Shown: positions 5,758 to 61,800, counted from the first letter of the stretch. The stretch is DNA of 64,000 nucleotides from Minisyncoccota bacterium (GCA_017991515.1 JAGOQI010000002.1:15088-79087); one strand, 5' to 3'. Translations and numbers: made by a program. The notes: generated by a model not told the origin, from the letters alone.

Positions 5758-8043
5758 ATGCGTTTGCAGAATATAGAAATATCTGGATTCAAGTCGTTTG
5801 CCAAAAAAGCAAACCTTTCTTTTAGCGCACCAGTAACTGCTGTTGTTGGGCCAAATGGTTCAGGTAAGAGTAATGTTGTTGAGGCATTTCGTTTTGTTCT
5901 AGGCGAACAATCTATGAAGAGCATGAGAGGAAAGAGTGGTTCTGATCTTATCTTTAAAGGAGGTGCTAATTCACCAAAACTCTCGAGAGCATCTGTCACT
6001 ATTACATTTGATAACTCTGACAAAGTCTTTGCCTTCCTGTCTGCGCAGGCAGGTCAAACTGGAGAAATAGCTTCTCCTGTACTTTTTGACACTGTGACAT
6101 TTTCTCGTGAACTTTTTGCCGATGGTACTAGCAAGTACTCTATGAATGGCACTGAAATAAAACTCAAACAAATGGTCGAGTTACTTTCTTCTGTAAATAT
6201 TGGTACCTCTAGTCACCATATCATTTCTCAGGGTGAAGCAGATGGGATATTGCGAGCTAATGCTAAAGATCGCCGGGGCATACTTGAAGATGCTTTGGGT
6301 CTTAAAATTTATCACCATCGTATTAGAGAAAGTGAATCAAAGCTGACTAAAACACTTGAGACTCTTAAAGAAGTTTCTTTGCTGAGGAGAGAGCTTGCTC
6401 CACATTTAAACTTTCTTAAAAAACAAGTTGAAAAGATAGAGAAGGGTAGAGTTATTAGAGACGAGCTAAAATCTGCGTTAGTCAGATTCCTTTCTACAGA
6501 AAAAGACCATCTTTCAAAAGAGGAAAATCGTATCAAAGAAGCAATGTCTTTGATACAAAATCAAAAATCTTCTTTAGAAAAACAATTATCAGATTTACCA
6601 GAGAAAAATGCAGACTCAGGATATGAAATCATTAAAGAAATAGAGAAACAAAAAAGCTTACTTATTTCTCTACAAGAAAAAAGAAGATCATTAGAGCAAA
6701 AAGTAGGTAGGTTTGAGGGTGCTATAGAAGCACACAGAAGTATTTCTCAGAGACAAAATAATAATGTCGCTCAAGGACCAAGCATCTCTTTTGCACCAAC
6801 AGAATACAATCAAATACTCTCTGACATTGAATTTTTTGTTTCTTCTATAAAAAATGCAAAAAGCCTTGAGTCTGTAAATGAAGCAATAATAAAACTTACT
6901 CCACTTATAGAAAGACTAAAAGCTCGAGCACCAGAAGATAAAAAGATAGACCAAATAAATACAGATATCCCAGATATTAGAGAAACGGTTTTGGAGCTGG
7001 AAGCCTTACAAAAAGAGCTTATACCTCTTATAAAACAAGAACAAGAAGCTTCTTTAAATATTGTTTCTCTAGAAAAACAAAGAGAACAAGCATTGTTGAC
7101 AAGTGCATCTTCTACAGAGTCTCGCTATAAACTCGGTAGCGATATTAAACAATGTGAAGCAGAACTTCAAATACTAGCTGTTACAAAAAGCGCTTTTATC
7201 CAAAGAAAAGAAAACTTTGATCAAGACATAAAAGAAGCTGCATTTTTATTTGGCCCAAGCTTTTTGCACGAATTACATACTTCTAATGCGGAAAATGATT
7301 TAGACACACACGATTTAAAAAGGTCTATAGATAGGCTTAAAATCAGATTAGAAGAACACAGTGGTATAGGTAATGATGTTGTGACTGAATACGAAAGTAC
7401 AAAAGAGCGTGATGCATTCTTAACTCGTGAACTTATCGACATAGAAACTAGTGTTAAAACATTAAGCTCTCTAATAGTCGATTTGAAAAAGGTTCTTGAT
7501 GAAAAATTTACAAAAGGTGTCGAAACTATTAATACTCGTTTTGGAGAATTTTTCAAAACTATGTTTGGAGGAGGAAGTGCTTTCTTATCTATCACTATTG
7601 AAAAAGGTAGAAAGAAAAAAACTGATGAAGACGATATAGGTAACTTTAATGAGGAAGACCTGCCTGCGCAGGCAGGAGAAGGTTTTGAAAGAGGGATAGA
7701 AGTACACGTGAATCTTCCAGAGAAAAAAGTCAAAGAACTCAACATGCTCTCAGGTGGAGAGCGATCTCTTGTTTCCATTGCGCTTCTCTTTGCTATTTCT
7801 CAAGTAAATCCGCCTCCATTTCTAGTACTCGACGAGACAGACGCTGCGCTAGACGAAGCAAACTCTCGGCGCTATGGAGATATGGTAGAGCGGCTCTCAG
7901 AGTACTCTCAGCTCATTGTGGTCACTCACAACCGCGAAACTATGTCCCGCGCCTCTGTGCTCTATGGTGTCACCCTCGGTTCAGACAGTGGTTCCAAACT
8001 CCTTTCTATCAAGTTTGACGAAGCAGTTAAAGTTGCGAAGTAA
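5758..8043 (+). CDS. smc: short SMC-like chromosome segregation ATPase (761 aa)
   Basis: N-terminal Walker A VVGPNGSGKSNV; C-terminal ABC signature LSGGERSLVSIALLFAI and Walker B LVLDETDAALD; long coiled-coil between them. Confidence 0.8.
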   Translation: MRLQNIEISGFKSFAKKANLSFSAPVTAVVGPNGSGKSNVVEAFRFVLGEQSMKSMRGKSGSDLIFKGGANSPKLSRASVTITFDNSDKVFAFLSAQAGQTGEIASPVLFDTVTFSRELFADGTSKYSMNGTEIKLKQMVELLSSVNIGTSSHHIISQGEADGILRANAKDRRGILEDALGLKIYHHRIRESESKLTKTLETLKEVSLLRRELAPHLNFLKKQVEKIEKGRVIRDELKSALVRFLSTEKDHLSKEENRIKEAMSLIQNQKSSLEKQLSDLPEKNADSGYEIIKEIEKQKSLLISLQEKRRSLEQKVGRFEGAIEAHRSISQRQNNNVAQGPSISFAPTEYNQILSDIEFFVSSIKNAKSLESVNEAIIKLTPLIERLKARAPEDKKIDQINTDIPDIRETVLELEALQKELIPLIKQEQEASLNIVSLEKQREQALLTSASSTESRYKLGSDIKQCEAELQILAVTKSAFIQRKENFDQDIKEAAFLFGPSFLHELHTSNAENDLDTHDLKRSIDRLKIRLEEHSGIGNDVVTEYESTKERDAFLTRELIDIETSVKTLSSLIVDLKKVLDEKFTKGVETINTRFGEFFKTMFGGGSAFLSITIEKGRKKKTDEDDIGNFNEEDLPAQAGEGFERGIEVHVNLPEKKVKELNMLSGGERSLVSIALLFAISQVNPPPFLVLDETDAALDEANSRRYGDMVERLSEYSQLIVVTHNRETMSRASVLYGVTLGSDSGSKLLSIKFDEAVKVAK
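6036..6055 (-). repeat. GC-rich palindromic element GACCTGCCTGCGCAGACAGG, copy inside smc
   Basis: Near-perfect 18-bp palindrome with core CTGCGCAG in AT-rich coding DNA; encodes FLSAQAGQ in-frame. Confidence 0.8.
7657..7676 (+). repeat. GC-rich palindromic element GACCTGCCTGCGCAGGCAGG, second copy inside smc
   Basis: Perfect 18-bp palindrome CCTGCCTGCGCAGGCAGG; encodes DLPAQAGE in-frame. Confidence 0.8.
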
Positions 8044-15907: not shown

Positions 15908-15954
15908 AGTTATTTTAATAATTAATATATAGTGTTTTTGTTGTACCGAATGAT

Positions 15955-16210
15955 CGCGCTTACTCATAAGAGTATGTGAGGAAAGTCCGAACACATAACG
16001 ATTTAATTCGTACAGGTAGTGGGTAATACCCATCGTGGGCAACCATAGGGCTGCGAACAGTGACGAATCCCTTTAGTGGGAGTGAAACGGCTAAATGCCT
16101 ATCCGTGTGCAAGACCGTGCTGAGAAATCAGAGTGTCGCTTGAGGATGACAGTAATATCATTCCCAGATAAATGATCACTAGAACAGAACTCGGCTTATG
16201 AGTACAACAA
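15955..16210 (+). ncRNA. rnpB: RNase P RNA (compact bacterial type)
   Basis: P4 5' strand GAGGAAAGTCCG near the start and P4 3' strand ACAGAACTCGGCTTA near the end; P1 pairing TACTCATAAG/CTTATGAGTA; CCATAGGGCTGCGAACAG and GTGAAACGG motifs; terminator directly downstream. Confidence 0.7.
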
Positions 16211-16213
16211 ATA

Positions 16214-16243
16214 TCAAAAAAATCCGCACAACGCGGATTTTTT
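16214..16243 (+). terminator. rho-independent terminator after rnpB
   Basis: AAAAAAATCCGCACAACGCGGATTTTTTT. Confidence 0.75.
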
Positions 16244-37716: not shown

Positions 37717-38079
37717 ATGAATATTTCAATCAAAACAACAAATATTGAATTAACACCAGCGCTTAAAGATTATACAGAAAAGCGTATCTCAGGGATAAAT
37801 AAGTTTACAGGCGAAGAGGTAACAGCTGCTGTCGAAATAGGTAAGACAAGTAATCATCATAAAAATGGTGAAGATCTTTTTAGAGCAGAGGTAAATGTCA
37901 CAACTTCTTTAGGTAAACAACTTCGAGCAGTATCAGAGAAATCAGATTTGTATGAAGCTATAGATGATGTGCGAGAGCAAATGGTGAGAGAACTTAAATC
38001 TGCAAAAGGTAAAGAAGATGCTCTGTGGAAAAAAGGTGCGAGAAAAATAAAATCTATGATGAGAGGTTTTCGTAGCTAA
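37717..38079 (+). CDS. hpf: ribosome hibernation promoting factor (RaiA/HPF family)
   Basis: MNISIKTTNIELTPALKDYTEKRI matches the HPF N-terminus. Confidence 0.8.
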   Translation: MNISIKTTNIELTPALKDYTEKRISGINKFTGEEVTAAVEIGKTSNHHKNGEDLFRAEVNVTTSLGKQLRAVSEKSDLYEAIDDVREQMVRELKSAKGKEDALWKKGARKIKSMMRGFRS

Positions 38080-38890
38080 CCTTCTTTCCATTTTCTGGGA
38101 TAACTTCTTCTATTACAAACTGCCCTGCCTGCGCAGACAGGTCCCATTCTAGGTGGGCTTTTGTTATTTTTATTCGTCTATCGTTTTGGAAAAAATAAGT
38201 ACCGATAGAGCCAAAATAAGCACGATACTTTCTATCATTTGTTGTCGCTTCCTCGTTTAGATTTATTTCGCCCTCTTCTTTGGATATTTTCTTGCAATGT
38301 GAAGCTTCTCCTGCCTGCTCTTGCGCTTTTATTGTTTCATCAAAAATACTTTTTATAACAGAAGGTAATAGTTTTATAGCAACTGAGTTTAGTTTTTCTC
38401 GAAGTGTTGGAGTTGTGTCTGTAGGGTCTATGCTAACTTCTTCTGAAACAAATATAGGACCGCTGTCGAGTTCGTAACGCATTTGTTGTATGGCTATACC
38501 TGTTTTTTTATCACCGTTTAAAATAGCACTCTCTACAGGAGTAGCTCCGCGATACTTCGGTAGTAGGGAATAGTGAACATTTATAGTCCCATATTTGGGT
38601 AAGTTGATCACTCTCTCAGGGATTATTTTGCCATAAGCAATAACGACAAATAAATCCCAAGATTCTTTTGATAATTCTTCAAAGAATTCATCATTTAGTT
38701 TCTCTGGTTGTAAAACTTTTATATCATTTTCTTGACCCCAAACTTTTGGTCCTGGGGCTTTTAGAGTCATACCGCGACCTGATGGCCTATCAGGGTTTGT
38801 GACTACTAGAGAAGGGGATAAAACATGCTCTTTAAGAGTTTCCAAGAAAGAAACAGTAAAATCCGGCGTCCCAAAAAATGCAATTTTCAT
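38054..38890 (-). CDS. fmt: methionyl-tRNA formyltransferase
   Basis: MKIAFFGTPDFTV, VVTNPDRPSGRG and INVHYSLLPKYRGATP motifs; its 3' end overlaps the hpf 3' end by 26 nt (convergent). Confidence 0.85.
   Translation of the reverse strand: MKIAFFGTPDFTVSFLETLKEHVLSPSLVVTNPDRPSGRGMTLKAPGPKVWGQENDIKVLQPEKLNDEFFEELSKESWDLFVVIAYGKIIPERVINLPKYGTINVHYSLLPKYRGATPVESAILNGDKKTGIAIQQMRYELDSGPIFVSEEVSIDPTDTTPTLREKLNSVAIKLLPSVIKSIFDETIKAQEQAGEASHCKKISKEEGEINLNEEATTNDRKYRAYFGSIGTYFFQNDRRIKITKAHLEWDLSAQAGQFVIEEVIPENGKKVSYENLSS
38124..38143 (-). repeat. GC-rich palindromic element GACCTGTCTGCGCAGGCAGG inside fmt
   Basis: Near-perfect 18-bp palindrome with core CTGCGCAG; encodes DLSAQAGQ in-frame; a degenerate relative (CCTGCCTGCTCTTGCGC, encoding AQEQAGEA) lies about 180 nt away at 38308-38326. 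Confidence 0.8.
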
Positions 38891-38943
38891 AAGGCTATAT
38901 TAACATAAAAGTAGATATTCGCCTGTAAGAAATATAGTTTATT

Positions 38944-38975
38944 CTCTGCGGATGCCTGCGCAGAGTCCTCGATTC
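38944..38975. repeat. intergenic GC-rich palindromic element CTCTGCGGATGCCTGCGCAGAGTCCTCGATTC
   Basis: Inverted near-identical copy (31 of 32 positions) of the element at 47851-47883; contains the CTGCGCAG core. Confidence 0.75.
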
Positions 38976-39020
38976 ATAAAATATATTTCTGACGGGCTCA
39001 AAGTAATTAGGCAAAATATG

Positions 39021-39524
39021 TTATTTTGTCGGAGCCTCCTTGTTTGGTGGTAAGTCTTCAACATCCACAGCTTTGTCGATGAAAAGTACGCCGTTTAGAT
39101 GATCTGTCTCGTGTTGGAAGATTTGAGCAAGTAAGCCTTTGCCACTCATGACAAATTCATTTCCTTCCATATTTGTAGCTCGCACTGTTGCGGTGAGAGA
39201 TCTTTTGACCATGCCGTACTTCCATCTAACACTTAGGCAACCTTCAGAGACCATTTCTTTTTTCTTGCCAAGTTTTGTAATAACAGGATTAATAAAAACC
39301 ATATCCTCAAGAGCTTTCGGTAATGCTCTTTTTGAAACTACAAATATTCGCAGTGGTACATCTATCTGAGGAGCAGCAATAGCCACGCCGTCATCTTCAC
39401 CGTGTAAAAGTTCTTTCATTTTTTCAACTACATCTTTTATTTCTTTAGATTTTATTTCAGAGGCAGAAACTTCTTTTGCAATACTTCGAAGTGTAGCGTG
39501 GGGGGATTGGATGATACCAGGCAT
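39021..39524 (-). CDS. def: peptide deformylase
   Basis: GVAIAAPQIDV, EGCLSV and HETDHLNGVLF motifs. Confidence 0.9.
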   Translation of the reverse strand: MPGIIQSPHATLRSIAKEVSASEIKSKEIKDVVEKMKELLHGEDDGVAIAAPQIDVPLRIFVVSKRALPKALEDMVFINPVITKLGKKKEMVSEGCLSVRWKYGMVKRSLTATVRATNMEGNEFVMSGKGLLAQIFQHETDHLNGVLFIDKAVDVEDLPPNKEAPTK

Positions 39525-39529
39525 AAAAA

Positions 39530-40831
39530 TTATTTTAAATGTTTAATATACTGACTAAGCTCTGACTGCATAACTGTTTCTTGTTCTCTTGTTTCCATAT
39601 TTCGAACTATAACACTTTGTTCAACAGCTTCTTTTTGTCCGAAGATTATCACATAGGGAGCTTCACTTTTCTCTGCCACAGCGAGTTGTGCACCGAGAGA
39701 GTCTTTTGATAGACATTGAGCTACAGGCACATGGGCTTTACGAAGTATTTCAATAACAGACAGACTTTTTAACTTCGCTTCAAAACCAACTTGTATAAAA
39801 TAAATCTTTGGCTTCTTCATTATTCTTGGAGCCAAGTTTCTAAACCATGGTCGCTCTATGACGCGGTCCATACCGATAGATCCTCCCATAGCAGGAATAT
39901 CCTTTTTTGATCCAAGTGCTTTAGCTAAGTAATCATAACGACCTCCGCCAGCAATAGTCATAGAAGTACCGTCTTCTAATGTTTCTATGATTTCAAAAAC
40001 AGTGTGAGTGTAGTAAGAGAGTCCACGGACCAATGTCTTGTCTATTTGATAAGCGATACCCATCTCATCCAAATATTCTAAAACTTCTTTGAAATGCTTT
40101 TTGCCACTAGCTGATAGGAAACTTGTCGAATCTGGCGCTCCGGCATTTATTTCTATTGTTTTAGGATCTTTTGAATCCAAAATTCTCATAGGATTACTCT
40201 TGAGTCGCTCTTGGTCTATGGTTGGCAAATCTTTCAAGTGTTTCTTGTAATAATTTGTTAGTTCTCGTAAATAAGCAGGGCGAGAGTCTTTGTCACCGAT
40301 AGAATTGATAGTTACCATCAAATCTTTTCCACCAGCTTCTTCAAGTATCGTATAAATAGTTTTGATAACGAGTGCATCAACAACACTTTTTTCACTACCT
40401 AAGGCATCAACATCAAATTGATAAAACTGTCTGTAGCGACCTTTTTGAGGTTTGTCATGACGAAATACAGGACCACTGTGATACATCATCACAGGCTGAG
40501 GCTGTGACTGCATTCCTTGTTCTATATAAGCACGCATAAGACCTGCTGTTTGTTCTGGGCGCATAGCTAGATGGTCACCACCTTTGGTTTTCAAGGTGTA
40601 CATTTCTTTGTCGACAATATCAGTCCCTACACCAACAGCAGAAGTAAAAGTTTCTTCATGCTCTAGTATCGGAGTTTCAATAGGAGTAAAACCATAATAA
40701 ACAGCTACCTCTTGAGCCTTCTCGAAAAAACCTTGAAATTTGTAATAGTCGGCGCCAAATATATCTCTCATGCCTTTTGGGCTACTAATACTTTGCTGCG
40801 TCTTCTTTTTTTCAGTTGGTTTTTTATTCAT
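39530..40831 (-). CDS. hisS: histidyl-tRNA synthetase
   Basis: Class II aaRS; PKGMRDIFG... N-terminus typical of HisRS; anticodon-binding C-terminal domain. Confidence 0.9.
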   Translation of the reverse strand: MNKKPTEKKKTQQSISSPKGMRDIFGADYYKFQGFFEKAQEVAVYYGFTPIETPILEHEETFTSAVGVGTDIVDKEMYTLKTKGGDHLAMRPEQTAGLMRAYIEQGMQSQPQPVMMYHSGPVFRHDKPQKGRYRQFYQFDVDALGSEKSVVDALVIKTIYTILEEAGGKDLMVTINSIGDKDSRPAYLRELTNYYKKHLKDLPTIDQERLKSNPMRILDSKDPKTIEINAGAPDSTSFLSASGKKHFKEVLEYLDEMGIAYQIDKTLVRGLSYYTHTVFEIIETLEDGTSMTIAGGGRYDYLAKALGSKKDIPAMGGSIGMDRVIERPWFRNLAPRIMKKPKIYFIQVGFEAKLKSLSVIEILRKAHVPVAQCLSKDSLGAQLAVAEKSEAPYVIIFGQKEAVEQSVIVRNMETREQETVMQSELSQYIKHLK

Positions 40832-41405
40832 AGTTCACTTTTCCTGGGAGATAATCTATTTGTTTTAATGGCAACAATCGAAGTAGTGCTCGGCCTCGAA
40901 GATTTGCTTTCGGTAATGTACCCCAAGAGCGAGAGTCAAAGCTTCCTGCTCTGTTGTCTCCCATAACAAAGTATTGGTCTTCTAGTACTTTTACTACCAT
41001 GTTGTCTAATGATTTATGAGTAATGAAAGATTCAGACAAAGTAAAACCTTCAGGATTTTCAGCGTTTGTAATAGTCACGATTTGTCCGTTTATAGAAACA
41101 GTGTCACCTGGAAGACCAATAATTCTTTTTATAAAATATTTATCAGGTTCTGGAGGAGCTTTGAAAACTACAACGTCCCCACGCTCTGGTTCTGAAAACT
41201 TATAAGTAACTTCATCTATCAAAAGATAGTTGCCAGTTTCAAGGGTAGGACTCATAGAGCTTCCGTTTACCACGAAAGGTCTGATGATGAATTGTTGTAC
41301 AAGCATAGCCAAAGCCACTGCTGTAACTATGTATAAAACATTTTCTAGAAAAACTCTAAACTTAGACTTGCTCTGCATTGCTACTGTTGAAGTGTTTTGT
41401 TCCAT
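40824..41405 (-). CDS. lepB: signal peptidase I
   Basis: GSSMSPTL and KRIIGLPGD motifs. Confidence 0.85.
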   Translation of the reverse strand: MEQNTSTVAMQSKSKFRVFLENVLYIVTAVALAMLVQQFIIRPFVVNGSSMSPTLETGNYLLIDEVTYKFSEPERGDVVVFKAPPEPDKYFIKRIIGLPGDTVSINGQIVTITNAENPEGFTLSESFITHKSLDNMVVKVLEDQYFVMGDNRAGSFDSRSWGTLPKANLRGRALLRLLPLKQIDYLPGKVNYE

Positions 41406-41476
41406 AATTGTCCCTATTATAGTTTAAAAAAGGACACGCGACAAGAAAGCATTTTTGTAGTTTAATTAAGGAATAT

Positions 41477-42040
41477 ATGGCAATAATCATAGGTCTTGGA
41501 AATCCTACAAAAGAACATGCTTTAGATCGGCACAATGTCGGTTTTATGGTTTTGGATTTTTTAGCAGAAAAACATGAGTTCTCTTTTGAAGAGAAAAATA
41601 CTTTTAATGCACAAGTAGCGAGTTATGATTCTTTGCTTCTAGTAAAACCACAAACATATATGAATGATTCTGGGCTCTCTGCCAAGAAACTTTTCAAACA
41701 ATACAAAGAGCTCCCAATAGTCATTTATGATGATATCGATATAAATCTCGGCGAAATAAAATGTTCACTCTCTCGTGGAGCAGGCGGGCATAATGGCGTA
41801 CAAAGTATTATTGATCACTTAGGCACCAAAGACTTTTTCCGTATCCGTGTAGGTGTGCGACCAGTGCACGAAGAACTCAAAGACAAGATACTTCCACCGA
41901 CAGGTTTTCAAGATTTTCTTCTAACAAACTTTGCTCCGTTTGAAAAAGAACTCAAAGAGCAGGGGATAGCCAAAGCCGTTGCTATCATCGAAGCCCTAAA
42001 AACCAAAACTTTTGAAACTGTAATGAATGATTTTAATTAA
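41477..42040 (+). CDS. pth: peptidyl-tRNA hydrolase
   Basis: GLGNPTKEHALDRHNVGF N-terminal motif. Confidence 0.9.
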   Translation: MAIIIGLGNPTKEHALDRHNVGFMVLDFLAEKHEFSFEEKNTFNAQVASYDSLLLVKPQTYMNDSGLSAKKLFKQYKELPIVIYDDIDINLGEIKCSLSRGAGGHNGVQSIIDHLGTKDFFRIRVGVRPVHEELKDKILPPTGFQDFLLTNFAPFEKELKEQGIAKAVAIIEALKTKTFETVMNDFN

Positions 42041-42109
42041 AGAAAGAAATAAATATTTATCTGAAAATATAGAAAATATTACAGAAAAATTATTAAATTA
42101 AAAATCCGC

Positions 42110-42748
42110 TCAGATGGCGGATTTTTTGATAGGGAAAAATAGTTTTTCTCCTGTAACATGGAAGTCTTGGGTTGTGTAATAATCTTGGAAATAATGCCAC
42201 GGAATAATTCCTACACCCAAGTCACTCCTTTTTTGGATCACTGATTGTTTGTTGGACTTCTCACCTACTCTGTAAGTAAAGATATTGTGACCTAGAGGAG
42301 ATAGGTTCTGAGATTGGTTGGCGATTAGGTCAACCATAGCATAGACCATCAGGTGCTCGTTAATTGAATGATCGAATAGAGGGTTATGTATTAGTGTTTC
42401 TTGAGAACACAAAAAGTTTCCTATTTGTGCTGAACAGATCTGTCCTTGTATAGACAAACATCCAAGATCAAAAGGGTTTACTTTATGATTTTCAGGCTCT
42501 ATTTCCATTGCTATTTCGGCACCTAGTACTAAGCCTCGAAATTCTTTTGTAAACTTAAATTTGTTTTTCCCTCGCCAATCGGTAAAGAATTCCTTTAAGT
42601 TCTCTGGTGGAGTTATCGGCACAATCTTCAAGTCTTTTAAACTTCCGTGTATTTTTCCAAGCTCAAATTTTTGTAGAACAGTCATATGTTTATTTTTCCT
42701 TATACTATAGCTTGTGGCTTCTTTGTCAAATCTAAAAATACCTCTCAA
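42110..42748 (-). CDS. hypothetical protein
   Basis: ORF only; the true start may be the internal Met (MTVLQKF). Confidence 0.4.
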   Translation of the reverse strand: MRGIFRFDKEATSYSIRKNKHMTVLQKFELGKIHGSLKDLKIVPITPPENLKEFFTDWRGKNKFKFTKEFRGLVLGAEIAMEIEPENHKVNPFDLGCLSIQGQICSAQIGNFLCSQETLIHNPLFDHSINEHLMVYAMVDLIANQSQNLSPLGHNIFTYRVGEKSNKQSVIQKRSDLGVGIIPWHYFQDYYTTQDFHVTGEKLFFPIKKSAI

Positions 42749-42797
42749 AATGAGAGGTATTTTTTATTATTAGCTAGAACAGTTCTAGCTAATCTAT

Positions 42798-43943
42798 TTA
42801 TTCAGCTTTTGTTCCTGTCTGCGCAGGTAGGTCTGTATGAGCAGATTCTGTAGGCAGGTCTTCTAGCTTTTGTTCACCGAAGACAAGTGTCATCTTTTGT
42901 TCTTTTGGTTCAAAAAGATTCACTGTGAAAGGATAGTTTTTACCGAGTTGCAATGCTTCTTTTAATTTCTCTTCTCCTCCAAATGTAGAGTTGTGCACTA
43001 GGCCCGCAACACCTTCTTGGATAGATACGAGGGCACCGTGTTTGTTGTATTTGATAACAACACCTTTAATAACATCTCCTCGCTTTAGAGTTTTTTCGAA
43101 AGCTTTCCAAGGATTGTCTTTCAGAGCTTTGATAGAAAGAGAGATTTTACCTTCTTTGATATCTATTATTTTTGCTTTAACCATATCTTTAACCTTGAAC
43201 ATACTTCGAGGATCTTCTACAAGTCCCCAGTCTAGTTCACTGATGTGTACCAAACCTTCAAGACCATCTTCTAGTTTCAAGAATACTCCAAAGTCAACAA
43301 CGCCAGTGATCTCGCATGATAGTTCGTCACCAACAGCGTATTTACTGATAACTTCTTGTCGCTCTTCAGGATTACTTTCTTTTTCAGAGAAAATAAGTTT
43401 GCCATCTTTTGGGTTTGCAGAAATCATAGTTACTGCGATTTTTGTTCCAACAAGCTTCTTAAGTTCTTTCAAAATCTTGTCTTTGTCTGAGTCTTCTACA
43501 CGAGGGTAGTGATCAGGCTTTAGTTGTGAAGCTGGTAAGAAACCAGAAACACCTTGCCAGTCAATGATAAGACCACCTTTGTTAGCATCTTTGATAGTTA
43601 AATCAAAAATAACTTTGTCTTTGATAGCTAGGTCTGCTTCACTCCATATCAAAGCTTGTTTTGCTTCTTTTAGAGAAAGTTCTATATAACCATCTTCGTT
43701 TTCAATATCAACAACTTTCGCTTTCACTCCGTCGCCAACATTCGCCTTTTTTAATAAATCACGAACAGCCATGAACTCTCGTCCATAAATAATACCTGTA
43801 CCGTACGGTGTTAGGTCTATATAAACTGCTGCTTTGTCTACTGCAATAATAGGTCCTTCAACCAACTCTTCAAGAGAGGGTCGAACTTTCACTACTTCTT
43901 CTGTAGATGAATCTTCTTTAATTGTCTCTGTGTCTGTTTTCAT
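42798..43943 (-). CDS. rpsA: 30S ribosomal protein S1 (short form with several S1 domains)
   Basis: Repeated S1 domains (GVVDFGVFLKLEDGLEGLVHISEL); start trimmed to MKTDTE. Confidence 0.8.
   Translation of the reverse strand: MKTDTETIKEDSSTEEVVKVRPSLEELVEGPIIAVDKAAVYIDLTPYGTGIIYGREFMAVRDLLKKANVGDGVKAKVVDIENEDGYIELSLKEAKQALIWSEADLAIKDKVIFDLTIKDANKGGLIIDWQGVSGFLPASQLKPDHYPRVEDSDKDKILKELKKLVGTKIAVTMISANPKDGKLIFSEKESNPEERQEVISKYAVGDELSCEITGVVDFGVFLKLEDGLEGLVHISELDWGLVEDPRSMFKVKDMVKAKIIDIKEGKISLSIKALKDNPWKAFEKTLKRGDVIKGVVIKYNKHGALVSIQEGVAGLVHNSTFGGEEKLKEALQLGKNYPFTVNLFEPKEQKMTLVFGEQKLEDLPTESAHTDLPAQTGTKAE
42814..42833 (-). repeat. GC-rich palindromic element GACCTACCTGCGCAGACAGG at the 3' end of rpsA
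   Basis: 18-bp near-palindrome with core CTGCGCAG; encodes DLPAQTGT in-frame, just before the stop. Confidence 0.75.
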
Positions 43944-44102
43944 AAAAATAAAAAATTGCCACGCAAAAGGTGGCAAGGCCACCTTTTGGAGTTCATTTTC
44001 AGCCTATAGGTCACAAAAATGAGGTTAATCCAAAAGGGTTGATTGTTAATATTTACTCGGTAAAGAGTGCCTAGATACTAGCATTTATAGCAGAAAACAT
44101 CC

Positions 44103-44131
44103 ACTTGACTTTTTACTCAAAATATGCTATT
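44103..44131 (+). promoter_or_regulatory. sigma70 promoter
   Basis: TTGACT, 17-nt spacer, TATTAT, upstream of the ORF at 44178. Confidence 0.5.
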
Positions 44132-44177
44132 ATATGGATAGTAAATAAATTATTTTAATCAATAAATTGTTCTTTTT

Positions 44178-44384
44178 ATGGATAAGAAAAATATAAATAT
44201 ATCGAAAAAAATTTTTCAATTATTTTTTATTATTTTGATAATATCATTCTTGCTCCTATGTTATGTCCTGTTCGACCAACCATTTGGTAAGTTGTTTTTG
44301 GATCAAGAGTTGGGGTTTAACCAAACAGGTTTTGTTACAATTTGTTCATTTGTTATTGTTATGATAATGGCTTGTTTTACATAA
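44178..44384 (+). CDS. small membrane protein
   Basis: Two hydrophobic helices; the terminator AGGAGCCCAGGCTCCTTTTTTTG follows. Confidence 0.4.
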   Translation: MDKKNINISKKIFQLFFIILIISFLLLCYVLFDQPFGKLFLDQELGFNQTGFVTICSFVIVMIMACFT

Positions 44385-44478
44385 TTGTGATAAAAAAATA
44401 GAGGAGTAATTAGTTATATTAAAAACTTAGGAGCCCAGGCTCCTTTTTTTGTTTTTGCATTTTTGCTATGATATCCCC

Positions 44479-45114
44479 ATGGTTATCACATATTACGGCA
44501 AACAATACTGCAAACTGACTTTAGGAGATCTGACTATCGCTATTAATCCGCCAGCAAAAACTTCAAAAGCTATGCCGAAGCCTCCACGATTTGGAGCTGA
44601 CATTGTTCTTATTACAACAAATCACCCAGACTACAACGGTGTTGAAACTGTCACAATGGGGGACAAAGAACCTTTTGTTATAGATGGCCCAGGTTCTTAC
44701 GAAGTTAAAGAATGTTTTATTACTGGAGCAAAGAGCACTGTTGTTTTAGAAGGCAAAGAATATATAAATACTGTTTATGGTTTTGAACTAGATGGTATAA
44801 AAGTAGTTGTTTTAGGTGCACTCTCTGATGTTGCGACTCTTTCAACAGAAGCCAAAGAGATAGCAGGAGCATCAGATTTGTTATTTATCCCTATTGATGG
44901 AGGAGATGTTTTTGATACTGTAAAAGCTTACAAAGCAGCTACATCTTTTAGTCCAAGTATTCTTATCCCTATGGCCTCTGACGAATCTCTAATAACACGA
45001 CTTTTGAAAGAAGCAGGGCAGGACAAGACTGAAATGGCTGACAAAGCAACACTTAAGAGAAAAGATTTAGAAGGAAAAGAAAGTTTTATAGTAGCCTTAA
45101 CACCTCAAGCATAA
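44479..45114 (+). CDS. metallo-beta-lactamase-fold-like protein with a degenerate metal-binding motif
   Basis: Start trimmed to MVITYYGKQYCKL; the overall pattern (ITYYGK...INPP...ADIVLITTNHPDYNG) parallels UPF0173 MBL-fold hydrolases, but HxHxDH is replaced by TNHPDY. Confidence 0.4.
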   Translation: MVITYYGKQYCKLTLGDLTIAINPPAKTSKAMPKPPRFGADIVLITTNHPDYNGVETVTMGDKEPFVIDGPGSYEVKECFITGAKSTVVLEGKEYINTVYGFELDGIKVVVLGALSDVATLSTEAKEIAGASDLLFIPIDGGDVFDTVKAYKAATSFSPSILIPMASDESLITRLLKEAGQDKTEMADKATLKRKDLEGKESFIVALTPQA

Positions 45115-45117
45115 AAT

Positions 45118-45339
45118 ATGGTTTTAGAAGATAAGCCAATTCATGTTCGCAGAAAGATAGCTCTTAGGATTACTATTATTGTCGGAGCAATACTTTTGGC
45201 TATTTTGGCTATCATATATCTCTCAGGTTCAAATAAAGATAATATAGAAAAAGACTCAGCATTTTTGCATTTTTACGCAACAATTTTAGATAATGCGCAA
45301 TCATTTTTTAGTCCAGACCGTGCTATAATAGAGAAATAA
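45118..45339 (+). CDS. hypothetical membrane protein (73 aa)
   Basis: ORF with one transmembrane helix, immediately upstream of gyrA. Confidence 0.35.
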
Positions 45340-45340
45340 T

Positions 45341-47824
45341 ATGGCTAAAAAGTCAGAAAAAAATTCGCCTGAGAGCGAGCCAATAACTCCAATCGTTCAC
45401 GACAAAATCGTGTCTGTTGATATTGTGGGTGAAATGCAACGCTCATATATAGACTACGCGATGAGTGTTATTACTGATCGAGCTCTTCCTGATGTCAGGG
45501 ATGGTCTTAAGCCGGTACATCGTCGTATTTTGTATTCTATGTATGAAAACGGTGTTGTTTCAACTGCAAAATTTCGTAAAAGTGCTTATATTGTCGGAGA
45601 TGTACTAGGTAAATATCACCCGCATGGAGATACTTCTGTTTATTATGCGATGGTGAACTTGGCACAAGACTTTACTACAAGGTACCAACTCATTCAAGGG
45701 CAAGGAAACTTTGGTTCTATAGATGGAGACTCTCCTGCTGCGATGCGTTATACCGAAGCTCGAATGTCAAAAATAGCTAGTGATCTTTTAAGAGATATAG
45801 AAAAAAATACAGTTGAGTTTCGCCCGAACTATGATGCTACTCGAAAAGAACCCTTAGTGTTCCCAACAGCTGTTCCAACACTTTTATTAAATGGAACTCT
45901 GGGTATTGCTGTTGGAATGGCAAGTAATATTCCGCCGCACAATTTAAATGAAATAGTAGATGCAACACTTCATCTGATAGAGCATGATGATGCAAGCAGT
46001 GATGACTTGGCAGAGATAGTAAAAGGACCTGATTTTCCAACTGGTGGATTGGCTTTTAATAAAAAAGATATTGTACACGCTTTATCTACTGGACGAGGAG
46101 GAGTTGTTTGTCGTGGTGAAGCAGAAATAGTAGAACAAAAAAATGGCTCATATCAAATAACAGTAACATCACTTCCATATCGAGTAGTAAGAAGTAACTT
46201 CGTAGAATCTATAGCAACACTGGTTCAAGAAAAAAAGCTCGATGGTATTAAAGGTCTTGAAGATCACTCAGCCAAAGATATGCGAGTTGTTATAACACTT
46301 AAAAATGGTATCAATCCACAAAAAGTTTTAAATCATCTATATAAACATACTCAACTTCAACAAACATTTCACTACAACATGGTAGCTTTGGTTGACGGAG
46401 TTCCAGAAACTCTTTCTCTAAAATCAGTATTAAATGCTTTTATTGCTCACCGAGAGGTTATTGTTCGAAGACGAACAGAGTTTGATTTACAAAAAGCAAA
46501 AGACAGAGAGCATATTTTGCTTGGTCTTAAGAAAGCACTTGATCATATAGATAAAATCATCACTCTTATCCGTGCTTCAAAGGACGCAGCTGTTGCGAAG
46601 CTAAACTTGATGAAAGAATTTAAATTCTCAGACCTTCAAGCAACTGCTATTTTGGAAATGCGTTTGCAAAAGCTCGCTGGGCTTGAGAGAAAAGCTGTAG
46701 AGCTTGAACTGAAAGAGAAACAAGAACTGATTGCAGAACTTGAAGCACTACTTAAAAGTGCAAAAAAAATATTTGCAGTTATTGCTTCTGAGCTTGCAGA
46801 ATTAAAAGAAAAATATGGAGATGAAAGAAAGACAAAGATCATGAATGGTGGAACAAATATGATTTCTGATGAGGATTTAATACCTGAGAAAGAAACAGTT
46901 TTAGTATTTACTTCTGGAGGATATGTAAAACGAACAGATCCTAGTGAATACAAAATGCAGCGCCGTGGAGGAGTAGGAGTTATTGATCTTGAAACAAAAG
47001 AGGAAGATTTTGTTACCCAACTTCTAACCACAGATACTCATAGTGATTTACTTTTCTTTACCAACAAAGGTAAGGCTTATCAAATAAAGATGTATGAACT
47101 TCCAGAAGGAAAGCGGGCTACAAAAGGTAAGTCTATTATGAATTATCTGTCACTAGCAGGCGATGAAAATGTTACTTCTATACTTGCTGTTCCAAAGAAA
47201 GCAAAGTCAGAAAAAGCGTCTTTGATGTTAGTTACCAAAAAAGGAGTTGCTAAGAAAATCTCTTACGAAAGTTTCAAAGATGTTAGAAGAAGTGGAATTA
47301 TTGCTATCAGGCTTGATGCCGGGGATGAGCTTGAAGCAGTACTACGAGTTCAAAAAGGACAAAGTATTATACTTGCAACATCAGAAGGTCAAAGTATTCG
47401 TTTTGATGAATCAGATGTTCGAGAAATGGGAAGAACTGCAGGTGGAGTACGAGCTATTAAGCTTAGTAAACATGACAAACTTATTTGTGCGGATGTCATA
47501 GAAAATAATCAGACTGCTGAAGATAAAACATATATGTTGATAATAGGAGAAAATGGCTTAGGAAAGAAAACTGCTATTTCAGAATATAAAGTACAAAAGC
47601 GCGGAGGGTCAGGAATAAAAACTGCCAAGATAACTGCAAAGACAGGGAAGTTGATGGTAGGGAAAATAGTAGTAGATGATATGGAGCTTGTGGCTATGAG
47701 TAAAAAAGGTCAAGTTATCAGAGTTGATCTTAATACTATCCCATCGAGCGGAAGACAAACTCAAGGTGTGACTATTATGAAACTTAAAGCAGGGGATACA
47801 TTGGCTTCGGTTACGTGCCTTTAA
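45341..47824 (+). CDS. gyrA: DNA gyrase subunit A
   Basis: [29 protein letters not shown] active-site region; GyrA-box-like QRRGGVG in the C-terminal domain. Confidence 0.9.
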
Positions 47825-47830
47825 TCGCTC

Positions 47831-47903
47831 GGGAGCAATATATTATTTGCGAATCGAGGACTCTGCGTAGGCATCCGCAGAAAGCAAATAATATATTGCT
47901 CCC
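47831..47903. repeat. 73-bp nested hairpin at the gyrA 3' end that carries a copy of the GC-rich palindromic element
   Basis: Perfect 20-bp inverted repeat GGGAGCAATATATTATTTGC / GCAAATAATATATTGCTCCC enclosing GAATCGAGGACTCTGCGTAGGCATCCGCAGAAA, which is the inverted copy of 38944-38975. Confidence 0.8.
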
Positions 47904-47949
47904 TCGCTTAGGAAAAAATTTGTAATATATTTTTATTTTTAAATACCCT

Positions 47950-47977
47950 TTCAACTTCACTATCTTACCGGTATAAT
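47950..47977 (+). promoter_or_regulatory. sigma70 promoter of the methyltransferase / solute-binding / pilin-like operon
   Basis: TTCAAC, 16-nt spacer, TATAAT, immediately upstream of 47984. Confidence 0.5.
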
Positions 47978-47983
47978 ATAAAC

Positions 47984-54684: not shown

Positions 54685-54705
54685 AAGGGGCATTCTACAT
54701 AGCGT

Positions 54706-54787
54706 GCCCGGGTGGCGAAATTGGTAGACGCGTCAGTCTTAGGAACTGATATCGCAAGATGTGAAGGTTCAAGTCCTTTCCCGGGCA
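54706..54787 (+). tRNA. tRNA-Leu (anticodon TAG)
   Basis: GCCCGGG acceptor, anticodon arm TCAGT-CTTAGGA-ACTGA, long variable arm, T arm GGTTCAAGTCC. Confidence 0.85.
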
Positions 54788-54804
54788 CACTGTGTGGAAT
54801 CCAG

Positions 54805-61762: not shown

Positions 61763-61800
61763 TAGGCCAAAAAAATGCAGCGCTGCGTTTGCAGCGGCAA

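Follow-up and report, generated by a model that had tools for sequence, protein, structure and literature searches.

The window, a 64,000-nucleotide stretch of a Patescibacteria ("Pacebacteria") MAG, contains two related intergenic hairpin elements: copy 1 lies between fmt and def, and copy 2 follows gyrA, whose stop codon (47822–47824) is separated by 6 nt from the inverted repeat of the element (Table 1). Including 10 kb outside the window, 74 kb of this genome was covered. The first-pass annotation had described two inverted copies identical at 31 of 32 positions. A recount placed the reverse complement of the copy 1 32-mer at 47851–47882 with two mismatches (30/32); the repeat itself is real, as none of 100 shuffled sequences contained any match to the 32-mer. 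Coincidence is ruled out because many homologous copies occur in other genomes.

Table 1. Features of the two hairpin elements in the window.
Feature	Position	Strand	Remarks
Copy 1 core, 32-mer CTCTGCGGATGCCTGCGCAGAGTCCTCGATTC	38944..38975	+	Antisense to def and fmt
Copy 1 inner hairpin, CTCTGCG × CGCAGAG	38944-38950 × 38959-38965		Loop GATGCCTG; unpaired tail TCCTCGATTC
Copy 1 outer stem, 5' arm	38921..38942	n/a	Locus-specific, AT-rich
Copy 1 outer stem, 3' arm	38976..38997	n/a	
Copy 2 core	47851..47883	-	Inverted with respect to both gyrA and the outer foot of copy 2
Copy 2 inner hairpin, TCTGCG × CGCAGA	47862-47867 × 47876-47881	+	Loop TAGGCATC
Copy 2 outer stem, 5' arm	47831..47850	n/a	Perfect 20 bp
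Copy 2 outer stem, 3' arm	47884..47903	n/a	
Copy 2 type B foot, 5' side (TCGCTC)	47825..47830	+	Conserved; immediately 3' of the gyrA stop codon
Copy 2 type B foot, 3' side (TCGCTTAGG)	47904..47912	+	Conserved

The perfect inverted repeat reported behind gyrA was present, whereas nesting, previously ascribed to copy 2 alone, was found in both: the 22-nt arms of copy 1 are 86% complementary and again exactly 33 nt apart. Predicted folding energies were -30.2 kcal/mol (z -4.9) for copy 1 and -41 or -43 kcal/mol (z -6.5 or -7.9) for copy 2. As had been noted, copy 2 lacks a U-tail; no T-run follows it, and a terminator scan returned no U-tract or terminator-like site at either copy. Together with the 33-nt loop, this led us to reject an intrinsic terminator at these sites. 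Both copies would be read in antisense by the only transcripts expected at their positions.

The 26-nt core, CTGCGGATGCCT(A/G)CGCAGAGTCCTCG, was recovered at about 25 distinct loci, exclusively on Patescibacteria contigs and on unrelated stems; its apparent invariance is inflated by the exact-pattern scans (ascertainment bias), the unbiased sample being loci L034–L037 only. The core was absent from the viral contig, phage, and plasmid collections searched. Both window copies are thus members of a Patescibacteria-specific family of 75–100-bp nested-hairpin repeats. Copy number is low: the 74 kb of this genome contains two copies, GTDB MAGs have one to three exact copies each, and six additional 20-kb loci have none. 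A search of the whole window against Rfam 15 at the gathering threshold detected only rRNA, RNase P RNA, and tRNAs, and at E ≤ 10 the interval 47780–47960 gave only sub-threshold matching due to hairpin shape, the single such family being Plastid-psbA-2, which matches in stem shape alone. The literature searched contained no description of such elements, and palindromic stems in the candidate phyla radiation (CPR, the ultra-small Patescibacteria) were mentioned solely in papers on TIGR-Tas. The family appears to be undescribed so far.

Run over the window at E ≤ 10, a family covariance model detected these two copies and no others. Consequently, the palindrome between clpB and tRNA-Tyr (61778–61798), which the first-pass annotation had grouped with the two copies, exists but is not a member; the broader proposal of a hairpin family rather than isolated terminators holds in that the element recurs in many genomes, without this palindrome. 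Similarly, the string CTGCG(C/T)AGGCA, said to be common to both copies and to palindromes in coding sequence, is a real repeat (10 matches with at most one mismatch versus 0.57 expected), but the 11-mer matches copy 1 only, because most family members have A where the coding palindromes have G.

Each element has a conserved center of about 50 nt perched on a locus-specific, AT-rich stem. The center comprises inner arms (TTTNN / N'N'AAA), a GC hairpin of 5–7 bp with an 8-nt loop (CTGCG-N8-CGCAG), and an unpaired tail, AGTCCTCG. In the type B subtype, which includes copy 2, an additional conserved foot, TCGCTCGG...CCTCGCTTAG, surrounds the stem. The outer arms are dissimilar at every non-orthologous locus, and the stem covaries, with both partners substituted in 21 of 22 pairs; 87.6% of cells pair compared with 31–52% when the partner columns are slid. 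The pair closing the core covaries as well (UA 10, CG 6, AU 3, UG 2). Since stem mismatches comprise 15 G-U versus 29 A-C, neither RNA strand is clearly favored. A 5-nt direct repeat, TCGCT, brackets copy 2 (47825–47829 and 47904–47908). The same pentamer brackets copies at unrelated loci in other genomes; therefore, it is a family consensus and not a random target-site duplication, and no locus-specific duplication, for which the first-pass annotation had advised checking, was found. The TCGCT/CTCG repeat is identical at all type B loci and missing from type A copies, including copy 1.

All canonical copies were intergenic, with none seen within an ORF; they were confined to spacers of co-directional genes, 3' of stop codons, after housekeeping genes. 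Type B copies begin 0–8 nt past the stop codons of the translation-related genes prfA, rpsT, and rpsP and of gyrA. Orientation relative to transcription was mixed, with about seven sense and six antisense among independent sites, and the spacer between rpsP and the KH gene carries the element in either orientation depending on the genome. Where elements occur together, each set consists of an element and a related core; eight pairs were convergent (L026 and L033 counting as one locus), none was divergent, and one set was tandem. Orientation relative to replication, judged by GC skew (17/26 copies), was uninformative, being confounded by coding-strand bias. A 12-codon micro-ORF across reverse-oriented type A cores was taken as a coincidence because type B copies lack it. 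A role as one-directional terminator against incoming antisense transcription fits four def–fmt loci but fails at L029, L032, L024, and L015, where all upstream genes lie on the other strand.

Behind gyrA, genomes share the core at 26/26 positions and the arms at 14–16/20, while identity at gyrA four-fold sites in those genomes is 0.40–0.57, at or near saturation (about 0.375 for random sequence). This conservation despite saturation points to host-level selection or homogenization rather than a decaying selfish insert. The loop of the window copy is flipped relative to L013, L026, L033, and L034, and in L037 and L036 the site is held by other core families. The window, L011, L012, L021, and L035 carry the element between def and fmt; the spacer is empty in L034, L036, and L037, with similar Fmt distances.

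Elements built alike but with other cores were found in-frame in ORFs, twice in an FAD-oxidase gene (L040) and once in an RNase R gene (L038); an 18-bp palindrome of the window also lies in-frame within ORFs. FAD-oxidase homologues exist as filled and empty alleles. The two L040 cores are identical at 42/44 positions on unrelated arms, and in the L042 orthologue (88% identical) the arms are kept while both cores carry the same derived changes. The numbers at FAD-oxidase site 1 fit a rule by which insertion duplicates the adjacent target sequence in inverted form; this was dropped as a general rule because neither arm of site 2 is present in the truly empty L043 allele. Separately, the L036 methyltransferase is called at 228 aa versus 174–175 aa in relatives, and the extension spans a hairpin.

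Related Patescibacteria ubiquitously encode a Y1 protein of the IS200-like, RAYT-like type. The IS200/IS605-type transposase that the first-pass annotation proposed to look for was not encountered: neither the window nor the 10 kb outside it (74 kb in total) contains a Y1_Tnp gene. The hairpins flanking RAYT-like Y1 genes of relatives share the design of conserved core and locus-specific arms with A/T tracts. In L038 and L039 the gene is flanked by TACGGAGGC-NNN-GCCTCCGTA, which is similar to the core hairpin (15/18 positions with one 5-nt gap, p about 0.002–0.006, uncorrected for five comparisons); this sequence likeness is only suggestive of a link to the Y1 enzyme. In L034, where a Y1 gene and the element coexist in one locus, the gene is flanked by a different hairpin, CCCATAGGATAATCCTATGGG, and we rejected this transposase as the cognate enzyme.

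Among known systems, selfish palindromes of the REP type come closest, here retained by the host as end-of-gene RNA hairpins with a putative function. Like REP/BIME sequences of Enterobacteria and Pseudomonas, whose RAYT is a Y1 enzyme of the HUH class, they are short, GC-rich, imperfect, extragenic palindromes at gene 3' ends or between cistrons, occur in both orientations, and cluster as inverted pairs. Within the same bacterial group, RAYT-like Y1 genes with inverted hairpins on both sides are likewise ubiquitous, and the core hairpin resembles one of the Y1-flanking hairpins. However, REPs number tens to hundreds per genome rather than one to three; here the conserved part has an unpaired tail and forms the loop at the tip of a long stem that is specific to each locus; and whereas a RAYT gene has one and the same hairpin, inverted, on its two sides, the 74 kb contains no Y1 gene, and the Y1-flanking hairpins of L034, which has both, are unlike the core. 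The GTAG tetranucleotide of the REP 5' foot is found on the reverse strand of the A variant (CTGCGTAGGC, copy 2), straddling stem and loop; copy 1 has GCAG.

Other comparisons were less close. Rickettsia RPEs and the GC clusters of yeast mitochondria are also small GC-rich palindromic inserts in AT-rich reduced genomes, and the same-design elements with other cores and the 18-bp palindrome match them in lying in-frame in ORFs; RPEs are conserved over their full 100–150 bp, whereas only the center is conserved here and the arms vary per locus, and the canonical family is intergenic only. Plastid 3'-UTR hairpins with small loop inversions (e.g. psbA) share the long AT-rich stem right after the stop codon and the loop that flips between lineages, but not sequence homology, and the loop here is a conserved 26-nt module common to unrelated loci. 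TIGR arrays are described as tandem arrays beside a tas (Nop-domain) gene, with loops carrying box C/D motifs and two variable 8–12-nt spacers (PMC12045711). The same account places TIGR-Tas in CPR and has variable, consistently palindromic stems flanking loops with conserved motifs (PMC12045711). In contrast, the present elements are singletons or doublets beside housekeeping genes with a loop identical across genomes. A TIGR stem-loop array was rejected: there is no tandem array, the loop is invariant, and no Nop-domain protein was found among the 20 window ORFs scanned. Instead of the conserved terminal inverted repeats and locus-specific target-site duplications of a MITE, the arms vary per locus and TCGCT/CTCG is constant. 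The foot lacks the AAC/GTT boxes that an integron attC site carries in its core sites at the base of the stem (R''/R' = RYYYAAC...GTTRRRY).

We tentatively favor the reading that the family is a palindromic DNA element akin to REP/BIME, maintained as a hairpin at gene 3' ends with a putative function. The GC-rich center would spread, or be copied, between sites at the DNA level, possibly driven by an HUH/Y1 enzyme acting on single-stranded hairpins, and would come to lie at the apex of terminator-type hairpins 3' of genes. The host may then retain the very stable transcript hairpin as a mark of the mRNA 3' end or cistron boundary, where it would protect the mRNA 3' end and, 0–8 nt past a stop codon, would disturb the terminating ribosome. 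The loop of copy 2 may have been inverted by recombination between its perfect 20-bp arms. The identical core on unrelated, covarying stems, the lack of a preferred strand, the placement and pairing, the patchy distribution, the same-design elements in ORFs, and the similarly designed hairpins beside Y1 genes of relatives support this reading, and a separate canonical terminator following the element in L009 and L010 indicates that it is not simply a terminator. Against it stand the copy number far below that of classical REPs, the lack of a transposase in the window and the differing Y1 hairpin of L034 despite the presence of the element, the conservation of core and arms at gyrA, the absence of canonical copies from ORFs, and the ascertainment bias behind the apparent invariance of the core.

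That conservation, far above synonymous sites, and the covarying stem would also be expected of a sequence-specific structured RNA, be it an element acting in cis within the 3' UTR or between cistrons, or a small RNA excised from the long stem (e.g. by RNase III). Such an RNA would use its conserved apical GC hairpin and C-rich tail (AGUCCUCG) to bind a protein or a second RNA. Apical wobbles fit the forward strand (two U-G closing pairs, UUGCG in L034b, and CUGUG in L035), and type B copies start just behind stop codons. A convergent pair offers one forward copy to RNA polymerase from either side, and in four def–fmt cases a convergent upstream S30AE gene overlaps or abuts fmt, so that its transcript would reach the forward copy. 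Nevertheless, the element is antisense to the sole expected transcription at roughly half of the independent sites, including the long runs of same-strand genes in L029, L032, L024, and L015; the window gyrA copy is flipped yet intact; stem mismatches favor neither strand; type B copies abut coding sequence without a preceding promoter; no Rfam family matches; and same-design elements with other cores lie in-frame in ORFs. Duplex energies of the core with the 16S rRNA, RNase P RNA, and six tRNAs of the window were no better than those of shuffled cores. We regard a structured RNA as unlikely.

A doubtful alternative of similar standing is that the GC-rich cores are cassettes actively copied among pre-existing locus-specific hairpins, both intergenic and in ORFs, by a templated or site-specific mechanism. 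Such copying would explain why cores within one genome are identical or co-evolve although their arms are unrelated, why different core families take each other's place at an orthologous hairpin, and why the core has persisted beyond synonymous-site saturation.

Orientation independent of transcription, tolerance of the loop flip, low copy number, and strong conservation of an asymmetric 26-bp sequence would suit a duplex DNA site that is bound by a chromosomal protein (a roadblock terminator or a nucleoid, topoisomerase, or recombinase site) and works in either orientation. Gyrase and IHF are known ligands of REP/BIME sequences in E. coli, which also counts in its favor. We nonetheless consider such a site quite improbable: a plain binding site gives no reason for a long covarying stem, replacement by other core families at the same site is left unexplained, the def–fmt site is absent in close relatives, and no candidate protein was found. 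Ordinary hairpin terminators, alike by chance or by descent from one terminator, would account for the position at gene 3' ends and for the A-tracts before and T-tracts after the stem in several type A relatives, which resemble the bidirectional terminators common in this genome, but are highly improbable given the 30/32 identity (0/100 shuffles), the missing U-tracts at both window copies, and the real terminators behind the element in L009 and L010, and are already contradicted by the family distribution, one core at non-orthologous genes in many genomes.

As Patescibacteria genomes are tiny and their spacers very short, intergenic sequence that is retained is informative, and the family provides a handle on transcript-end marking and tolerated mobile DNA in these bacteria. 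For annotation, these elements account for "extra" residues in some Patescibacteria proteins and may mislead gene callers. If the link to Y1 holds, the REP/RAYT partnership would extend to a major uncultured radiation. If cores are copied between hairpins, this would be a new mode of sequence homogenization, and Patescibacteria would have a previously unseen type of mobile or concerted-evolution system, with the RAYT-like Y1 enzyme as its possible driver.

The window is approximately 35% G+C and encodes 16S rRNA, a short RNase P RNA and six tRNAs. It also contains two copies of a nested-hairpin repeat, in the def-fmt spacer (copy 1) and at the gyrA 3' end (copy 2). The first-pass annotation had described their 32-mers as reverse complements matching at 31 of 32 positions; the inverted pair was recovered, but with two mismatches (30/32), and none of 100 shuffles gave a match like it. 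The perfect 20-bp inverted repeat reported around copy 2 was borne out by an inverted-repeat check. However, such nesting had been described for copy 2 only, and copy 1 is nested likewise: its 22-nt arms are 86% complementary, and the gap between the arms is exactly 33 nt in both copies. Both strands of both copies folded more stably than shuffled sequence by a wide margin (copy 2, -41 and -43 kcal/mol, z -6.5 and -7.9; copy 1, -30 and -25 kcal/mol, z -4.9 and -3.9). No T-run follows either copy and a terminator scan of the window was empty at both sites, in agreement with the earlier remark that copy 2 lacks a U-tail. Ordinary A-tract/stem/T-tract terminators are in use elsewhere in this genome.

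An exact scan for CTGCGGATGCCTNCGCAGAGTCC across one genome per species returned nine loci in six MAGs, all from Patescibacteria, and a looser pattern applied to metagenomes yielded 17 further true loci and three GC-rich chance matches. No element was found in the viral contigs, phages and plasmids scanned; Rfam gave no match, neither at the gathering threshold nor at E ≤ 10, and no description of such elements was found in the literature searched. All relatives belong to the Patescibacteria (Parcubacteria group), and the source given for the window Fmt protein is 'MAG: Candidatus Pacebacteria bacterium'. In exact-pattern scans the core seems invariant by construction, and the unbiased parts of that sample are only six free positions (GCCT(A/G)C) and the flanks. 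At every locus the core caps a long, locus-specific stem as its apical loop. Across 22 distinct copies, 21 of 22 outer-stem pairs were altered on both sides, 87.6% of outer-stem cells pair (31-52% with partner columns slid), and the pair closing the 26-nt core covaries (UA 10, CG 6, AU 3, UG 2). Each arm is semi-conserved over its innermost 5 nt (TTTNN / N'N'AAA), as is a 3-by-4-nt junction, which brings the conserved centre to approximately 50 nt. The palindrome between clpB and tRNA-Tyr, previously placed in the same family, does exist but was not recognised by the covariance model built from these copies.

Type A copies, including copy 1, have the junction TTATTCT-core-ATTCATAAAA and, in several relatives, A/T tracts outside the stem. 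Type B copies, including copy 2, have the foot TCGCTCGG...CCTCGCTTAG, with a direct repeat TCGCT or CTCG, and begin 0-8 nt past a stop codon. Reverse-read type A copies contain a 12-codon ORF that spans the core exactly (in the window, ATG AAT CGA GGA CTC TGC GCA GGC ATC CGC AGA GAA TAA); since type B copies lack it, this ORF was set aside as a coincidence. The covariance model also found diverged relatives right beside canonical copies. Their cores, of which TCTGCGGAACTCGC...CAGGTCCTCGATTTC is one example, all begin with YRCGGA and finish with CAG(N0-3)CCTCGA, and the middle varies in length. Among doublets of canonical and diverged copies, eight are convergent, none is divergent and one is a tandem set. 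Two near-identical loci on contigs of other Patescibacteria, L033 and L026, have the core, 3' arm and downstream sequence in common; their 5' arms differ at 8/20 positions and the L033 stem is therefore broken, which could reflect recombination, an assembly chimera or a recent arm rewrite.

Forward orientation was defined as CTGCGG...CCTCG. By this definition, both window copies are antisense to the local transcript, and independent sites divide into approximately seven sense and six antisense. Every site is a spacer between co-directional genes, and none is a divergent promoter region. Stem mismatches show no clear preference for either RNA strand: 15 would be G-U on the forward strand and 29 on the reverse. 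At two loci in relatives (L009 and L010) a canonical terminator lies downstream of the element, which is thus dispensable for termination there.

Positions of the element and of associated features in the window and in L-numbered contigs of other Patescibacteria genomes (genes flanking the element were named by eye from flanking proteins)
Feature	Location	Setting
Copy 1, 32-mer	window 38944-38975	between def 39021-39524 (-) and fmt 38054-38890 (-)
Copy 1, arms	window 38921-38942 / 38976-38997	
Copy 2, reverse complement of 32-mer	window 47851-47882	6 nt past stop codon of gyrA 45341-47824 (+); same-strand methyltransferase gene follows
Type A reverse reading	window 38939-38977 (-)	copy 1
GC palindrome	window 61778-61798	clpB/tRNA-Tyr
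Element after prfA	four loci	
Element after rpsT	two loci	
Element after gyrA	five genomes	
Element after alaS	three cases	
Element between def and fmt	four or five cases	
Element between rpsP and KH-protein gene		both orientations, in different genomes
Element, other than named sites	four sites	
Near-identical loci	L033 4335-4432; L026 1372-1469	
In-frame nested-hairpin inserts	L040 14442-14535 and 14925-15018	FAD-oxidase gene; homologues L042 10001-11824, L041, L043
18-bp palindrome	window 6036-6053, 7659-7676	SMC-like ORF 5758-8043
18-bp palindrome	window 38124-38141	fmt
18-bp palindrome	window 42814-42831	S1-domain ORF
18-bp palindrome	L034 4959-4976	
Y1 gene	L034 10840-11475; L040 10001-10645; L042 14725-15369; also L038, L039	
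Y1-flanking palindromes, CATAGGAT-type	L034, L040	
Y1-flanking palindromes, TACGGAGGC-type	L038, L039	
Dispersed Y1-type hairpins	L034 16567; L039 16836	
-10-like boxes	window 38891-38915; 47955-47983	before fmt; before post-gyrA methyltransferase gene
S30AE/fmt overlap	window 38054-38079	S30AE 37717-38079 (+), convergent with fmt
tRNA-Leu(tag) inverted repeat	window 54692-54712 / 54780-54800	layout kept in L033 11859-11957
RNase P RNA	window 15938-16214	

Several further features of the gene setting were observed. A -10-like box (TGNTANTAT or TATAAT) ends approximately 6 nt before the ATG of fmt and of the post-gyrA methyltransferase gene, and upstream of fmt it is also present in L011, L012, L021, L034 and L035; this short distance suggests that both mRNAs are leaderless or near-leaderless. 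The 3' ends of the convergent S30AE and fmt genes share 26 nt, so that a terminator would have no space there, and the tight layout is also seen in L011, L012, L021 and L036. The tRNA-Leu(tag) gene lies inside a 16-21-nt inverted repeat that prolongs the acceptor stem into leader and trailer. The RNase P RNA is 277 nt long against a 367-position model and scores barely over the family threshold (116 bits versus 100).

Relatives were chosen through Fmt homologues, independently of the core. The def-fmt spacer holds the element in the window, L011, L012, L021 and L035, and lacks it in L034 (36 nt), L036 (1 nt) and L037. The gyrA 3' end carries it in the window, L013, L026/L033 and L034, and long hairpins with unrelated loop families occupy this site in L036 and L037. 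At gyrA four-fold degenerate sites, identity with the window is 57% for L034 and 40% for L033, against a random expectation of approximately 37.5%. Despite this divergence, the gyrA-site core is 26/26 identical, and the arms match at 16/20 and 14/20 positions (L034 and L033, respectively); the element is therefore maintained there, by selection or repeated homogenisation. The foot of the window gyrA copy is oriented as in four other genomes and its 33-nt loop is reversed: the window GAAT...AAA is, bar one base, an inverted L034-like TTT...ATGC loop. Recombination between the two perfect 20-bp arms would be the simplest cause of this flip.

A census showed that long stems with GC-rich loops are common in these genomes, with several unrelated cores. 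One of these cores, TTCCCGGAGTACCGGTTGGGACCC, lies between genes in L016, and L040 has it at two in-frame positions of its FAD-oxidase gene; the L038 gene for RNase R contains a further in-frame nested hairpin. The length of FAD-oxidase homologues varies between 544 and 659 aa; insertions fall at two hot spots, and some alleles are filled and others empty. In L040 the two cores are identical at 42/44 positions, and their arms are unrelated. In L042, whose orthologue is 88% identical, the arms are kept and both cores have the same derived changes: the cores, but not the arms, evolve in concert. This concerted change between L040 and L042 is the most interesting lead. A model in which an inverted flank copy is made at each insertion fits numerically at site 1, fails at site 2 and was not kept as a general rule. 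Some 'empty' alleles hold a short, footprint-like xNS remnant (KNS- or ENS-type). Separately, four ORFs contain a palindrome of 18 bp, perfect or nearly so, with the sequence CCTG(C/T)CTGCGCAGRCAGG; its codon phase is constant and its product is L(S/P)AQ(A/T)G. In Fmt it forms a 6-residue insertion; orthologues L011, L021 and L034 lack it, and L012 has a decayed form (PSIQTG). All CTGCGCAG octamers of the window fall in these palindromes or in copy 1.

A search for a cognate transposase had been suggested; no Y1, DDE or recombinase gene was found in the window or 10 kb beyond. In L034, a 211-aa Y1_Tnp gene (PF01797) adjoins fmt. In Patescibacteria this is a very large family and a well-conserved one, at least 7,955 of 8,000 scored candidates passing E ≤ 1e-5, and homologues among the matches listed are 61-73% identical. 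The 211-214-aa Y1 protein (IS200-like, RAYT-like) is extremely widespread and conserved in Patescibacteria, its clusters among the matches listed mostly comprising one or a few contigs each; at the L21-RecR site, the gene is present in L040 and L042 and missing from the window's genome. RAYT genes, which encode the transposases of REPs, have a short palindrome on each side. The Y1 gene always lies between short perfect palindromes whose sequence varies by lineage, and these hairpins likewise stand on locus-specific arms, a design they share with the element described above. Dispersed Y1-type hairpins resemble A/T-tract terminators. An alignment of the canonical hairpin to the L039 type, with one 5-nt gap, matches at 15/18 positions (p 0.002-0.006 by shuffling, uncorrected for five comparisons). 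L034 has the canonical element together with a Y1 gene bearing a different hairpin, which speaks against a direct link.

Mixed orientation among sites, the lack of any strand signal, doublets that converge, patchy presence, core exchange at one site and same-design elements inside ORFs point to a REP/BIME-like DNA element. That it has been retained for long at the gyrA 3' end, and that it lies just past stop codons, argues for a benefit of the hairpin itself to the host. We hold this combined reading tentatively, as a possibility that falls somewhat short of probable. All of these distribution features argue against a sequence-specific RNA, which we consider unlikely, and a DNA-binding site is less probable still. 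Plain terminators, against which the same features count, are highly improbable. The hairpin could shield the 3' end or act as a marker of operon boundaries; when a REP lies within approximately 15 nt of a stop codon in E. coli, upstream expression is lowered. Small dispersed palindromic repeats are an already known kind of element, and what appears to be new is that the element is nested, its conserved centre standing on locus-specific arms, that it is restricted to Patescibacteria and that its copy number is very low.
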